Below, piece after piece: positions 2,892 to 23,229 of a DNA stretch of 64,000 bases. A model generated the notes under the pieces. It did no database searches, was not told the DNA's origin, and saw nothing but the letters and a program-made list of their open reading frames with translations. The stretch lies in IMG/VR virus record IMGVR_UViG_3300045988_015843; one strand, given 5' to 3'. The DNA comes from a virus. The stretch's first letter is position 1. The number at the start of each line of letters is the position of its first letter. A program made the translations under genes and the position numbers.

Positions 2892-3231
2892 GAAATATGT
2901 GATCGTAGATCTTACAAACGTTGAGAGCCCCAGTGATGTATATGCAGCTTTTGTAGAGGCTAAGTGTGGTGTAGAGCCTATCACTAAAGAGGAGATGTTC
3001 AACTACGCTATGCACGTCACAGAGCTGATGAATTCAAACATCGTCAAGTCATGCGCTTATCTAGTAGATTATATTGATGCACTGATTGATACAATTGAGA
3101 GTGTTTATGATAATGATGATTCTGATGACGCTGAGAATGCCGTAAAGAAGCGAGAGGGTGAGGAGAATGAGGTTGAGAAGAAGCCTAATATCTTCAAGCG
3201 TTTCTGGAACTGGATTACACGTAAGAAATAA
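2869..3231 (+). CDS. Hypothetical acidic protein (120 aa)
   Basis: Intact ORF, TAA stop, no TAG. Confidence 0.5.
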   Translation: MKSMKPVKKYVIVDLTNVESPSDVYAAFVEAKCGVEPITKEEMFNYAMHVTELMNSNIVKSCAYLVDYIDALIDTIESVYDNDDSDDAENAVKKREGEENEVEKKPNIFKRFWNWITRKK

Positions 3232-3278
3232 ATAGTTGGTTACTAAAAACTATCTGCAGTGACACACAACACTGCAAT

Positions 3279-3370
3279 GCGGGAGTAGCTTATGAGGTAG
3301 AGCAGTGTGAAGTCTGGAATAATATCAGATGAGATCCTCATGGAAGCAGGTTCGAGTCCTGCCCCTGCGC
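3279..3370 (+). tRNA. Atypical tRNA-like gene with a type II (long variable arm) layout; anticodon not assignable by eye
   Basis: Elements that fit a type II tRNA:
- T arm GCAGG-TTCGAGT-CCTGC (3346-3362)
- D arm GCTT-ATGAGGTA-GAGC (3288-3303)
- acceptor 5' TGCGGGA(G) against 3' CCCTGCG, 6 of 7 pairs
- hairpin TCTGG-AATAATA-TCAGA (3313-3329)
- variable-arm hairpin TGAG-ATC-CTCA (3330-3340)
Problems: 8 extra nt (3305-3312) lie between the D and anticodon arms, and the 7-nt loop lacks U33. Read conventionally the anticodon would be UAA (Leu). It could be a degenerate or unusual tRNA. Confidence 0.45.
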
Positions 3371-3383
3371 AAAAAACTACAAT

Positions 3384-3602
3384 ATGCGGCTAAAAGAATC
3401 TAATAGACCAAAACATTTGTTGTACGCTATTCCTGCAGCATTTGTTGGTACGATATTATTCAGTACAGGTCTAGCGTTTGGAATGGAGTTTAAAGACAAA
3501 CAATGGGGAGGTAAGTTCGATTGGCTTGATATAGCTGCTACAGAAATAGGTGGTTTAATCGGACAAGCACTTCAAATAGGAGTGATTTCATTATTTGTTT
3601 AA
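3384..3602 (+). CDS. Small membrane protein (72 aa, two hydrophobic segments)
   Basis: Intact ORF. Hydrophobic stretches: LLYAIPAAFVGTILFSTGLAF and IGGLIGQALQIGVISLFV. Confidence 0.5.
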   Translation: MRLKESNRPKHLLYAIPAAFVGTILFSTGLAFGMEFKDKQWGGKFDWLDIAATEIGGLIGQALQIGVISLFV

Positions 3603-3606
3603 TTAA

Positions 3607-3631
3607 TTAACCTCCTTAAGAAAGAGGTTAA
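3607..3631 (+). terminator. Perfect 8-bp hairpin between the membrane-protein gene and the tRNA 5' half
   Basis: TTAACCTC-CTTAAGAAA-GAGGTTAA. There is no downstream T-run, so it may be a processing or attenuating structure rather than a terminator. Confidence 0.3.
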
Positions 3632-3669
3632 CACTGCCCTATGGTGTAGCGATTAGCACAAGAGGCTCT

Positions 3670-4648
3670 TTTATCCAATGAATAATTGAATATATGGAAA
3701 ATAAAATATATAAGCTCTCAGACGAACAGTTTGTTGAGCTGCTCAAGAATAGTTCGACTATATCTGAAGTGTTATTTAAATTAGGTTATAGTGTAAAGGG
3801 TAATTCTTGGGGGTTTGCTAAAGTTAAACAAAGAATGTCTGATTTAAATTTAGACGGAAGTATATTTAAAGGTAAATCTCCAATTACGAAATATGGTACT
3901 TTACACAAAGTAAATGCTTCAGATATATTAAAACCTAATTGTAAACATGCTCGTTCTGTTTTAAGACGATATGTCATAAAAAATAATCTAATCCCATATC
4001 GATGTGCGATTTGCGGATGTGTTGAATGGCAAGGTCGTACATTAAGCTTAGAGCTTGATCATATAAACGGAATCAACAACGATAATCGTATAGAAAATCT
4101 ACGATTTCTATGTCCGAATTGTCATAGTCAGACAACTACTTATGGTAGTAGAAATCAACAAAGAAATGATTCTGAATATGAAATTACAGACGATCTTAGA
4201 AATTTAGTTGAAGCTGAGTATCAAAAACGTCGTAATATAAAACAAGTTTCTTCAGCACTTGGTGTTCGTAGACATGTTGTAAACAGGATTGTTAGCGAAA
4301 GCGGTTTGAAAAAATCTAATCAAAAATATGTGATTCGATACGATGAGAACTGGAACGAAATTGCACGATATGGTTCTTTGATAGAGACTGCAAAGCAACT
4401 TATTCTCAACAACGAAGTTAAAACAAAACGAATTAAAACATGTACTCGTACGATCATGTACAATAAGGATAATTTTTGGTTGAACAGTCATTGGAAAATA
4501 TTGGATGGTAGCGGGATAATAAATAATCCGCTATTAGAATCTTCTCTAATTGACTCGGAAGACAATGTTGACGAGGCGCAAGCGAAAGCAGCGTGACAGA
4601 CTGAACGAGAAGACTGGTCTTAGGACTGGATGCAACAGTCGATTTATG
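3670..4648 (+). mobile_element. 979-nt intervening sequence in the anticodon loop of the suppressor tRNA, carrying an HNH homing-endonuclease ORF (group I intron-like; ribozyme core not verified)
   Basis: The 5' exon ends in U (3669) and the intervening sequence ends in G (4648), as at group I splice sites. No other junction giving a 7-nt loop satisfies both rules. The 3' flank has a GNRA-capped hairpin (AAGC-GAAA-GC, about 4578-4590) and ACUG...CAGU pairings (4600-03 / 4636-39). Only 24 nt precede the ORF and 52 nt follow it, so any catalytic core would have to overlap the coding sequence. Confidence 0.4.
3694..4596 (+). CDS. HNH homing endonuclease (300 aa)
   Basis: The motif CAICGC...LELDHINGINNDNRIENLRFLCPNCHSQ matches H-N-H with flanking Cys pairs. 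TGA stop, no in-frame TAG. It lies entirely inside the tRNA intervening sequence. Confidence 0.9.
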   Translation: MENKIYKLSDEQFVELLKNSSTISEVLFKLGYSVKGNSWGFAKVKQRMSDLNLDGSIFKGKSPITKYGTLHKVNASDILKPNCKHARSVLRRYVIKNNLIPYRCAICGCVEWQGRTLSLELDHINGINNDNRIENLRFLCPNCHSQTTTYGSRNQQRNDSEYEITDDLRNLVEAEYQKRRNIKQVSSALGVRRHVVNRIVSESGLKKSNQKYVIRYDENWNEIARYGSLIETAKQLILNNEVKTKRIKTCTRTIMYNKDNFWLNSHWKILDGSGIINNPLLESSLIDSEDNVDEAQAKAA

Positions 4649-4700
4649 AACCCTCCTGGTCCGGGTTTGACTCCTGGTAGGGCTACTAAAATATAATAAG

Positions 4701-5264
4701 ATGGAAATTAAATTCAAGAAACTTTCTCATAAGGCTGTAATGCCTTCAAAAGCACATAAGACAGATGCTGGTTTTGATCTAACTACTACGGGTATAACGA
4801 CAGAGTTGAATGAGTGTGGTCAGTTGGTGATCGTATATCATACAGATCTTGCATTAGAGATTCCTGAAGGATACTTTGCTCTGGTGATGCCAAGATCATC
4901 TATTGCAAAGAAGTCATTACGTCTTACGAATAGTTGTGGTGTGATCGATTCAGGCTATCGTGGTGAAATACTTGGTAAATTTATCGCAACTACAGATGTT
5001 GTTCCTGCCGTATACAAGGTTGATGATAAATTTGCTCAGCTGGTGATCTTGCCTGTTCCTGATGTAGAGTTTGTTGAGTCTGATAATTTTTCAGAATCTG
5101 ATCGAGCTGATGGTGGTTACGGATCTTCTGATAAGGCACAGACTGCTGTAGACTCTGATACTAATACATCTGGCAACGACGAAAATATTTCAGTGCGAAG
5201 TGCACGACCGACAGATTGGCAGTCTGCAGTAACTGAGGACAATCAGTGCGAGTCTGCAGCATAA
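4701..5264 (+). CDS. dut: dUTP diphosphatase (dUTPase) with an acidic/Ser-rich C-terminal extension
   Basis: Motifs: AGFDL, PRSSIAKK, GVIDSGYRGEI. Intact ORF with no TAG. Confidence 0.85.
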   Translation: MEIKFKKLSHKAVMPSKAHKTDAGFDLTTTGITTELNECGQLVIVYHTDLALEIPEGYFALVMPRSSIAKKSLRLTNSCGVIDSGYRGEILGKFIATTDVVPAVYKVDDKFAQLVILPVPDVEFVESDNFSESDRADGGYGSSDKAQTAVDSDTNTSGNDENISVRSARPTDWQSAVTEDNQCESAA

Positions 5265-5292
5265 TAACACATGACAACCATCAAGGTTGTTT

Positions 5293-5367
5293 GGAAGTTT
5301 AGCTCAGTTGGTTTAGAGCGTCTGCCTTACAAGCAGAAGGTCGATGGTTCGAATCCACCAACTTCCA
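5293..5367 (+). tRNA. tRNA-Val (anticodon UAC)
   Basis: Cloverleaf elements:
- acceptor GGAAGTT/AACTTCC, 7 of 7
- D arm GCTC-AGTTGGTTTA-GAGC
- anticodon arm TCTGC-CTTACAA-GCAGA
- variable AGGTC
- T arm GATGG-TTCGAAT-CCACC, one mismatch
- discriminator A
Total length 75 nt. Confidence 0.85.
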
Positions 5368-5403
5368 CCTTCATTTTTTTCATACTGACTTTTTGAATTT
5401 GCG

Positions 5404-5427
5404 TTACTCCAACTTCGGTTGGAGTAA
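5404..5427 (+). terminator. Perfect 10-bp hairpin with a UUCG tetraloop at the boundary between the TAG-free early island and the recoded late genes
   Basis: TTACTCCAAC-TTCG-GTTGGAGTAA. A T7 run precedes it at 5374-5380; no T-run follows. Confidence 0.35.
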
Positions 5428-5451
5428 TTGCGTATATACGTATATATAAAT

Positions 5452-5943
5452 ATGATTTATTCAAAGCTTAGACGTACAAATATACAGAATGCGGCAGGTA
5501 CTCCTGTCACACCTCGTATTTTACATATGCAAGAGCCTGATAAATTGAAAATCGTGGATAGCTCTCAGTTTCAATTCGGAGATGTTCTCGATGCAAAATC
5601 TACAATGGAACTTATCGGAAAGGGCGGTGGTTCTGGTGTAGATATGAAAATGCTCTAGGCATATGTGAACAAAATGACGATTGAGTATGATCCAGCAACT
5701 AAATCTGTAAAACTAATCTCTCCAGATGGGATTGTTATTGGATCTGCTGATATGTCATCTATTGCAACAGAGGGTGGTGTTGCAATTGAATCTGGTTCTT
5801 ACGATAAGGGTAGTGATAAACAGAACGTGCTGCGTCTGAAAATGACTGACGGATCTTCTAAGGAGATCTTGATGAACGATGTTATGGACTCTAATGACGA
5901 TTATTCTATCGACACAAAAGACATCGCATCAATCTTAAATTAA
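5452..5943 (+). CDS. Hypothetical protein (163 aa), 1 in-frame TAG (5656)
   Basis: Track ORFs 5428..5658 and 5665..5943 share frame 1 and are separated only by TAG. The start is taken at ATG 5452. Confidence 0.5.
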
Positions 5944-22557: not shown

Positions 22558-23229
22558 ATGACGTATAAGGACATACATAAAAAATACATGATTGAATATG
22601 ACAAAGAGAATGTTACTTCGTCATATCCGTCGCTAACAACATACGAGATTGCTACTATATTAGATAAAGCTTATCTTGCACTTATTGCTCAAAAGTTAAC
22701 TGGAAATCAACAAAGAGTTCCTTTTGAAGGAGACATTAAAGCCATAGAGGATGTTAGGAATCTCATAGCGTCTAAGAAAATTAGTAAGAGTAATACTACT
22801 TTACCAATAGATAACGCTGTGATATACAAGTTGTCTGACATCTTATACTTCTTAACTGCATTAGTACTGATTGATGGAAAACTTGTAACAACAAATCTTG
22901 TTAACCATGAGATTGCTAAGAATTTCATGCATACTGCGACAAATAGACCGTGGATAAAGAACAGTGTTTGTTATATAGAAGGAGATAATCTAATTGTTTT
23001 ATACGATGATTATTCTCATAAAAATGTCGGGGATCTACAACTTACGTATATCAAATAGCCAGATAAGTTTGTAGATCATATAATCGGAAAAACATTTGAT
23101 GACACTCAATTTGCATTGAATGATACTATGGTTGAAGAGCTAATAAGTCTTGCTATTATAATGTCTTTAGAGACTGTTGAATCTCCAAGATTACAAACAA
23201 AGTTGAACACTAAAGCACTAGAGTCATGA
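22558..23229 (+). CDS. Head-tail joining-like protein, paralog 1 (223 aa), 1 in-frame TAG (23056)
   Basis: The ORF continues past TAG to TGA 23227. The motif LTYIK(Q=TAG)PDKF is shared with the next gene. Confidence 0.5.

Follow-up and report, generated by a model that had tools for sequence, protein, structure and literature searches.

A probable mobile group I intron splits the anticodon of the amber-suppressor tRNA gene in a TAG-recoded crAss-like phage

Where does a phage whose late genes are rich in in-frame TAG codons keep the suppressor tRNA needed to read them? This question is raised by a 64,000-nucleotide stretch of viral DNA (IMG/VR virus record IMGVR_UViG_3300045988_015843; hereafter the window, with positions counted from its first letter). 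An initial annotation, made from the sequence alone, had claimed that the anticodon of a tRNA(CUA) gene is interrupted at 3635-4685 by an insertion encoding an HNH endonuclease. The analysis presented here leads to the conclusion that these positions very probably constitute one gene, which encodes the amber-suppressor tRNA(CUA) of a crAss-like phage with TAG recoding and whose anticodon is split by a mobile group I intron.

Sequence comparison relates the region to crAss-like phages of the Suoliviridae/Oafivirinae (Crassvirales), with 67-80% identity, and a megablast search with positions 9000-30000 returned nothing above ~80% identity. When TAG is read as sense, long open reading frames (ORFs) extend from 6004 to the window end, and the plus-strand ORFs of at least 200 amino acids contain 147 in-frame TAG codons. 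The initial annotation had spoken of several hundred, a figure that is too high, although the recoding itself is real. The ORFs located before 5300, including the HNH ORF and a dUTPase gene, have no in-frame TAG at all. Therefore, the split tRNA, which is encoded on the same strand, lies at the border between a standard-code block and a recoded late block. Within the latter, a single frame of 7267 codons (39337-61137, plus strand) holds 52 in-frame TAGs, and the next frame, of more than 955 codons and with 16 TAGs, runs off the window end; the block at 39337-61137 presumably corresponds to the giant virion RNA-polymerase/tail-associated genes known from crAss phages.

No other tRNA(CUA) is found by ARAGORN in the window, where it calls just a tRNA-Val(TAC) at 5293-5369 and an aberrant tRNA-like gene at 3278-3370. 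A comparable situation exists in the complete 98-kilobase (kb) genome of a Bohxovirus (PV686213.1), which has the same split gene together with TAG-recoded late genes, and in which no contiguous tRNA(CUA) is detected, ARAGORN giving tRNAs for Met, Glu, Ser (two) and Cys, and one odd tRNA. The latter has a four-base anticodon (tatg) and lies at 23152-23224 of entry L046 of our collection. In this genome, named Bohxovirus sp. 'endotrachealis' (entries L045/L046), the ORFs that reach 300 codons contain 74 in-frame TAGs; its GenBank record follows the standard code, presents the late genes as many short 'hypothetical protein' fragments and lists no suppressor tRNA. With regard to the amino acid inserted, TAG was shown by a metaproteomic study to be read as glutamine in crAss-like phages (PMC9523058), and by analogy the spliced tRNA would most probably read UAG as glutamine too.

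The components of the locus are the following:

Positions 3635 to 3669, plus strand: 5' exon of the tRNA(CUA), with the 5' strand of the acceptor, the D arm, the 5' strand of the anticodon stem (AGAGG) and loop nucleotides C32, U33, C34 and U35; identified by ARAGORN, covariation and the homologue in cr130_1.
Positions 3670 to 4648, plus strand: insertion of 979 nucleotides (nt) between anticodon positions 35 and 36, assigned to the group I introns by allele comparison, core covariation and 70 loci.
Positions 3694 to 4596, plus strand: HNH homing-endonuclease ORF of 300 amino acids, in the loop of the putative helix P1; Pfam HNH, PHROG 10822.
Positions 4649 to 4685, plus strand: 3' exon of the tRNA(CUA), with A36, A37, C38, the 3' strand of the anticodon stem, the variable loop, the T arm, the 3' strand of the acceptor and the discriminator A; CCA is not encoded.

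Thus, the tRNA(CUA) is encoded in two halves, at 3635-3669 and 4649-4685, and 3670-4648 separates U35 from A36. The 5' half ends with GAGGCTCT at 3669 (in longer form, TGCCCTATGGTGTAGCGATTAGCACAAGAGGCTCT) and the 3' half begins with AACCCTCC at 4649 (in longer form, AACCCTCCTGGTCCGGGTTTGACTCCTGGTAGGGCTA), whereas their outer ends are held together by the acceptor pairing of GCCCTA (3636-3641) with TAGGGC (4678-4683). All coordinates of the initial annotation proved correct, including the 24 nt and 52 nt that flank the ORF on its 5' and 3' sides within the insertion. When both halves are joined in silico, ARAGORN calls a 73-nt tRNA with anticodon CTA, and at minimum free energy the join folds into a clean cloverleaf. 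By contrast, ARAGORN does not call any tRNA in the unspliced locus (3400-4900), even with its intron option and introns of up to 3000 nt, and Rfam cmscan (E≤10; 3000-5600 and 4380-4700) yields a 14-bit partial tRNA match covering the 3' half only. An uninterrupted homologue exists in cr130_1, at the syntenic spot between a lipoprotein gene and the dUTPase, with the loop CTCTAAC and, according to ARAGORN, anticodon CTA; it is labelled tRNA-Gln in RefSeq.

Evidence that both halves function together comes from relatives of the locus, gathered from the viral collection in three ways: with a DNA pattern drawn from the conserved 3' portion of the insertion, with the HNH ORF in a protein-based scan, and with a looser pattern for the core. 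At least 70 loci have the same element next to tRNA halves, at the same spot; both halves are present in 58, 35 of which are distinct. The introns measure 950-1000 nt, and the junctions are invariant, with CTCT preceding the insertion and AA(C/A) following it. Since the contigs range from 37 kb to 282 kb, several phage lineages must be involved. When 19 spliced genes and the intron-less gene of cr130_1 were aligned as cloverleaves, 98% of the cells were paired, compared with 46-53% when partners were slid. The stems that span the 1-kb gap show compensatory changes in all four counted anticodon-stem pairs and in four of seven acceptor pairs, and 18 anticodon-stem variants occur, each of them complementary between its own two halves. 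In some members (L024-L031, L005 and L017) the 3' exon has a non-standard T arm, for instance GUGGG-GGCAGCA-CCUAC, without a TPsiC-type loop, and ARAGORN does not call the spliced form; their acceptor and anticodon stems are complementary nonetheless.

The exact junction is provided by intron-less alleles. A scan for contiguous tRNA(CUA) genes in viral contigs gave more than 120 loci, and among these the spliced tRNAs of L003 and L008 have perfect counterparts (73/73 identical), in L148, L099 and L076 for the former and in L151, L133 and L132 for the latter; these contiguous genes pass the Rfam tRNA threshold with 54.1 and 31.7 bits. Because the spliced relatives are identical to intron-less alleles, the junction is fixed between U35 and A36, that is, between U3669 and A4649, as had been proposed initially. 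The alleles with and without the intron differ by its precise presence or absence, as expected of a mobile intron, and near-identical introns are found in tRNA alleles with different stems. Outside the viral collection, a scan of the genomes of 185,579 species gave six matches, five of which are short phage-like contigs of metagenome-assembled genomes carrying the same split tRNA, so that no evidence of a bacterial chromosomal copy was obtained among these genomes; the sixth, in a GC-rich contig of a Gammaproteobacteria, was discarded as a chance match.

These data bear directly on a less favourable explanation, already contemplated in the initial annotation, according to which a homing endonuclease element has destroyed the gene, leaving a dead relic, and suppression depends on another tRNA(CUA) of the phage or of its host. 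The fact that neither ARAGORN nor Rfam sees a tRNA in the unspliced locus would agree with it, as would the 34% of the ~98-kb genome located outside the window. However, compensatory changes tie the halves together in 20 genes and 18 stem variants, the ribozyme core and the ORF are conserved, and another tRNA(CUA) is present neither in the window nor in the complete recoded Bohxovirus with the same split gene. Moreover, an amber suppressor supplied by the host would harm a host that uses the standard code. Taken together, these observations make the relic very improbable.

As regards the nature of the insertion, the initial annotation had suggested a group I intron, with the caveat that a canonical core was not evident. 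That core exists, at 4501-4648, and had escaped notice because it overlaps the 3' end of the HNH ORF, over its last ~100 nt. The structure was drawn by eye from compensatory differences and then counted on 26 distinct sequences (alignment A1), giving these elements:

Positions 4508 to 4534, plus strand: P2 hairpin, GUAGCGG-G-AU pairing with AUCCGCUAU; nine pairs, six compensatory, 98.7% paired; also found by RNAalifold.
Positions 4540 to 4546, plus strand: 5' strand of P3, UCUUCUC, pairing with 4607-4613; six of seven pairs compensatory; also found by RNAalifold.
Positions 4554 to 4575, plus strand: P4, CUCG (4554-4557) pairing with CGAG (4572-4575) and enclosing a short P5 region; four pairs, two compensatory, 100% paired.
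Positions 4576 to 4594, plus strand: P6 hairpin, GCGCAAGC-GAAA-GCAGCGU; six pairs, one compensatory, 100% paired.
Positions 4597 to 4603, plus strand: 5' strand of P7, C-A(bulge)-GACUG, pairing with 4636-4641; six pairs, 100% paired, two compensatory (C-G to A-U and G-C to A-U).
Positions 4607 to 4613, plus strand: 3' strand of P3, GAGAAGA, from covariation.
Positions 4614 to 4629, plus strand: P8 hairpin, CUGGUC-UUAG-GACUGG; six pairs, two compensatory, 98% paired.
Positions 4636 to 4641, plus strand: 3' strand of P7, CAGUCG, which together with J8/7 reads GGAUGCAACAGUCG and resembles the group I 'S' element.

In total, the 38 pairs of these six helices (P2, P3, P4, P6, P7 and P8) are 99.2% paired, and 19 of them show compensatory changes; the covariation score is 0.364, compared with 0.05-0.09 in slid controls, and was not reached in any of 500 shuffles. 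The helices follow the order P3-(P4-P5-P6)-P7-P3'-P8-P7', in which the crossing of P3 and P7 makes up the group I pseudoknot, and RNAalifold, which cannot draw pseudoknots, independently recovers P2, P3, P4, P6 and P8. At the sequence level, J3/4 and P4 (UAAUUGACUCGGAAG) resemble the group I 'P' element and the 5' strand of P7 resembles the 'R' element, with the pair G4599-C4640 at the place of the guanosine-binding pair; C4597, the bulged A4598 and G4599-C4640 are invariant in the 26 sequences. The hairpin at 4508-4534 was at first read as P4 because of its P/Q likeness, an assignment abandoned in favour of P2 when covariation showed the 5' strand of P3 to follow it.

The Rfam group I model agrees with this register in relatives of the window intron. 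It places the corresponding segment of relatives at J3/4-P4, aligns their GACUAAA and GAUAGUCU to its P7 strands, and locates the homologous segment of an ORF-less sibling, L172, at J8/7-P7', with 23 bits (E 0.001) for this sibling and 10.3 bits for L044. None of nine sibling phage introns reaches the gathering threshold of RF00028, and for this reason the silence of Rfam is uninformative for this clade. In addition, the motif GGCGCAAG..GCGTGA..GACUNAA of the window core recurs in more than 100 other group I introns of phages, which lie in non-tRNA contexts. These introns (L167-L271, IMG/VR) come from contigs of many environments and have in common the core UAAUUGACUYGRA...GGCGCAAG...GCGUGA..GACUAAA...GAUAGUCY. 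The assignment of 3670-4648 to the group I introns is supported.

A different route by which the halves could be joined is that of protein enzymes, an endonuclease and a ligase of the archaeal/eukaryal type, or the assembly in trans of a split tRNA. The insertion is certainly in the anticodon loop, like the tRNA introns that are removed by proteins. Nevertheless, it measures 979 nt and is located between positions 35 and 36, the canonical position being between 37 and 38, and it contains a covarying group I core instead of being a short bulge-helix-bulge intron. The bacterial hosts (Bacteroidota) are not known to have a splicing endonuclease. As for assembly in trans, the halves are co-linear on one strand and show neither a separate promoter nor leader complementarity of the Nanoarchaeum type. 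Both variants are thus extremely improbable.

Returning to the group I intron, its splice sites can be assigned as follows:

Positions 3674 to 3681, plus strand: 5' strand of the P1 extension, UCCAAUGA, with weaker distal pairing up to ~3703, which includes the AUG at 3694; from RNAduplex with 4488-4495.
Positions 4488 to 4495, plus strand: 3' strand of the P1 extension, UCAUUGGA, closing a loop of ~800 nt that holds the ORF.
Positions 4501 to 4505, plus strand: candidate internal guide sequence, UUGGA; G4503·U3669 (wobble), G4504-C3668 and A4505-U3667 form P1, and U4502 and U4501 can pair with A4649 and A4650 as P10.
Position 4648, plus strand: terminal guanosine (omega-G), with no P9 hairpin ahead of it in the window lineage.

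P1 would be a 3-base-pair (bp) helix of UCU with GGA, in which the splice site is marked by a U·G wobble. As is usual in group I introns, the guide is found immediately 5' of P2, from which it is separated by 2 nt, and UUGGAUG (4501-4507) is invariant apart from the variant L183, in which UU has been lost; GGA is kept in every member, L183 included. Thus, the last exon nucleotide is a U that faces a G of the guide, and the last intron nucleotide is G4648, in agreement with the splice-site rules invoked in the initial annotation. RNAduplex finds the 3-bp P1 together with its extension in 13 of 16 loci and the leader helix in all 16, with helix sequences that vary by subtype. Leaders pair with their cognate partners with a mean of -14.6 kcal/mol, compared with -9.0 for non-cognate ones; the cognate partner is the best in 7 of 10 subtypes, and z-scores against shuffled sequences range from -2.4 to -5.0.

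Two other pairings were considered for this region. A long-range helix between AUCCAAU (3673-3679) and AUUGGAU (4500-4506) would block the guide, whereas that formed by UCCAAUGA and UCAUUGGA leaves it free and covaries across subtypes. Also, CUCU can be paired in most members with GGGG(U/A), a sequence ~140 nt inside the intron; this was rejected as the main guide candidate since it is dictated by Trp-Gly codons of the protein, is distant from P2 and does not occur in L014.

The last intron nucleotide is G in 29 of the 35 distinct relatives. The A-ending loci are L002, L003, L007, L009-L012, L016, L019 and L014, where UUUAACA or GCUAGCUA is followed by AAC. In these members the exons still co-vary, and the spliced L003 is precisely one of those identical to an intron-less tRNA. 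If this part of the family works with a terminal A, it would be a natural exception to a near-universal group I rule. The only precedent known to us is a self-splicing Coxiella intron without the canonical terminal G, reportedly described by Raghavan et al. in 2007; this 23S rRNA intron of Coxiella burnetii would share its non-G last nucleotide with the six A-ending relatives, although it belongs to another gene and another organism, and the window intron ends in G.

Several observations weigh against an intact, self-splicing intron in a working tRNA gene. P1 has just 3 bp and, being invariant, receives no support from covariation. P9 has been lost in the window lineage; a covarying P9 hairpin before the 3' splice site is found in a divergent subfamily only (54-60% protein identity). 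The terminal G, otherwise near-universal, is replaced by A in six of the 35 distinct relatives, Bohxovirus included, with no change in P7. RF00028 gives no match on the window, even at E≤10 (3000-5600; 4380-4700), and the relatives reach 10-23 bits, compared with a gathering score of 50. RNAalifold proposes an alternative in which the guide region AUUGGAU (4500-4506) pairs with AUGCAAC of J8/7 (4630-4636), which may be an inactive alternative conformer or a chance pairing of two conserved segments. The tRNA itself is somewhat atypical, with mismatches U1·U72 and A27·C43 and the T loop UUUGACU. A second tRNA(CUA) could in principle lie in the ~34 kb of this genome beyond the window. Finally, autocatalysis is predicted from sequence comparison.

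Some of these features would be accommodated by a group I-derived element that no longer splices by itself, either because it needs a protein (for instance, the HNH protein with a maturase activity, or an RNA chaperone of the phage or its host) or because the ribozyme performs the first step only. The unusually small core (~150 nt, without P9 and with a short P5), the 3-bp P1, the terminal G missing in six of 35 relatives and the very low Rfam score would all be consistent with such a dependence. A short P1 is no obstacle in the 205-nt tRNA intron of Azoarcus, which also has one of 3 bp and splices well alone. That intron is likewise compact and self-splices efficiently (PMC13168695), and compensatory change maintains all the core helices of the family discussed here, which argues for a working ribozyme. 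The need for a protein is accordingly regarded as improbable, and self-splicing as the preferred reading.

The ORF housed by the intron matches Pfam HNH with 21.9 bits (cut-off 21.4) and PHROG 10822, 'HNH endonuclease', with an E-value of 2.6e-44; a PDB sequence search with the protein gave no significant match. In the 38 members examined it is always intact (270-304 amino acids) and free of in-frame TAG, so that its translation does not require the suppressor in whose gene it sits. The closest protein noted, from IMG/VR UViG_3300045988_025212, is 98% identical to the HNH protein of the window. Over its final ~32 codons the frame coincides with the guide sequence, P2, P3, P4 and P6, and the TGA stop codon abuts P7. 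In the divergent subfamily the ORF stops within the 5' strand of P2, whereas in the window lineage it reads through the core, and thus translation and ribozyme folding must compete.

Taking all this into account, it is proposed that the locus would be transcribed as a precursor of ~1.05 kb, in which the leader (3674-3681 and beyond) would pair with 4488-4495, closing the ORF loop of ~800 nt and bringing the 5' splice site beside UUGGA (4501-4505). UCU (3667-3669) and GGA (4503-4505) would then pair as the 3-bp P1, whose U·G wobble marks the site of cleavage, while the compact core (4508-4641; P2, P3, P4, P6, P7 and P8, without P9) would fold with its P3/P7 pseudoknot. A free guanosine would attack after U3669, G4648 would later fill the G site, and the exons would be ligated, GAGGCUCU being joined to AACCCUCC, to release a 72-nt tRNA with the loop CUCUAAC. 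This tRNA would read UAG in the late genes, which start ~1.3 kb downstream. The endonuclease, translated with the standard code, presumably cuts the intron-less tRNA(CUA) gene of co-infecting relatives, spreading the intron.

It could further be imagined that splicing acts as a timing gate for the code switch, the onset of the late TAG genes being set by competition between ribozyme and ribosome. This idea is based on the position of the ORF, whose start lies in the P1 extension and whose final 32 codons cross the guide, P2, P3, P4 and P6: the suppressor could appear only once the ~1-kb precursor has folded and spliced, and this folding would compete with translation of the ORF. We consider such a gate rather unlikely.

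The mechanistic kind to which this element would belong has long been known, as group I introns occur in the anticodon loops of bacterial tRNAs, one of them with a homing endonuclease. The latter is the intron of the cyanobacterial initiator tRNA-fMet, reportedly described by Bonocora and Shub in 2001 as encoding the homing endonuclease I-Ssp6803I (cited in PMC3428280). It is of the self-splicing type, interrupts the anticodon loop, shows presence/absence polymorphism and has an endonuclease directed to the intron-less anticodon region, as in the present case. The differences are that here the interrupted gene is a phage amber suppressor and not a cellular initiator tRNA, the endonuclease is of the HNH and not of the PD-(D/E)XK type, the insertion lies between positions 35 and 36, and the ORF occupies the P1 loop and runs into the ribozyme core.

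Phage-borne group I introns with HNH homing endonucleases are also familiar, as in the DNA polymerase genes of the Bacillus phages SPO1 and SP82 (I-HmuI/II). Another example is the DNA polymerase intron of cyanophage Pf-WMP3, which encodes the HNH endonuclease I-PfoP3I (PMC3428280). All of these are located in protein-coding genes, whereas here the host gene is a tRNA, so that the spliced RNA is itself the functional product and would control the decoding of the late proteome. The ORF-less introns of tRNA-Leu(UAA) in cyanobacteria and plastids and of tRNA-Ile(CAU) in Azoarcus (PMC13168695) share with the window intron the anticodon-loop location, a compact core without P5abc, a very short P1 backed by a P1 extension, and the use of anticodon-stem nucleotides as exon context. 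However, they measure 200-250 nt, have P9 and are cellular, in contrast to the 979 nt, the HNH gene, the lack of P9 in the window lineage and the exclusive presence in phage contigs observed here.

As for function, the closest counterparts are the suppressor tRNAs of TAG-recoded crAss-like and other gut phages (PMC7886860; 10.1101/2021.08.26.457843; PMC9523058), which have the same role, that of a tRNA(CUA) that permits the TAG recoding of late genes. Theta ribozymes adjoin such suppressor tRNAs (PMC10879173) and represent another ribozyme tied to suppressor-tRNA maturation. An intron in the suppressor tRNA is not mentioned in any of these four sources, and a full-text literature search did not reveal any account of a phage suppressor tRNA interrupted in this way, which fits the initial impression that the arrangement was undescribed. 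What is new, therefore, is the setting: the interrupted gene is the suppressor tRNA that underlies phage code switching.

TAG recoding is common among gut phages, and in many of them a suppressor tRNA is not detected: Yutin et al. refer to such genomes and suggest host tRNAs or very divergent ones. Split genes offer a third explanation, given that ARAGORN, tRNAscan-type tools and Rfam all fail to see them, the GenBank record of the Bohxovirus being an example; once the intron is recognised, the tRNA that seemed to be missing is recovered in 70 or more viral contigs, from several phage lineages. If splicing occurs as proposed, the whole late proteome would hang on one ribozyme reaction, and genetic-code switching would be tied, in a way open to experiment, to RNA splicing and to a selfish homing element. 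In turn, a mobile intron would find an ideal refuge in a suppressor gene that is indispensable to the phage. Ribozyme researchers may also take an interest in the ~150-nt core without P9 and in the A-ending relatives.

Two minor features were observed upstream of the split gene. The aberrant tRNA-like gene at 3278-3370 (plus strand, 93 nt), located 260 nt upstream, has good acceptor, D and T arms and an oversized anticodon region; ARAGORN reports it with 'anticodon ggaa', or as Leu(gag) with a 16-nt intron if introns are allowed, and it scores 27.6 bits in the Rfam tRNA model (threshold 29). In the Bohxovirus, the corresponding place is occupied by a normal tRNA-Met. An 8-bp hairpin, TTAACCTC-CTTAAGAAA-GAGGTTAA (3607-3631, plus strand), follows the upstream ORF, whose stop codon is at 3600-3602, and precedes the 5' end of the tRNA; it may serve as terminator, processing signal or stabiliser. 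In cr130_1, the same place has GGTTCC-CTTAAGAAA-GGAACC, with the same loop and a different stem, and most other family members show some hairpin a few nt 5' of the tRNA.

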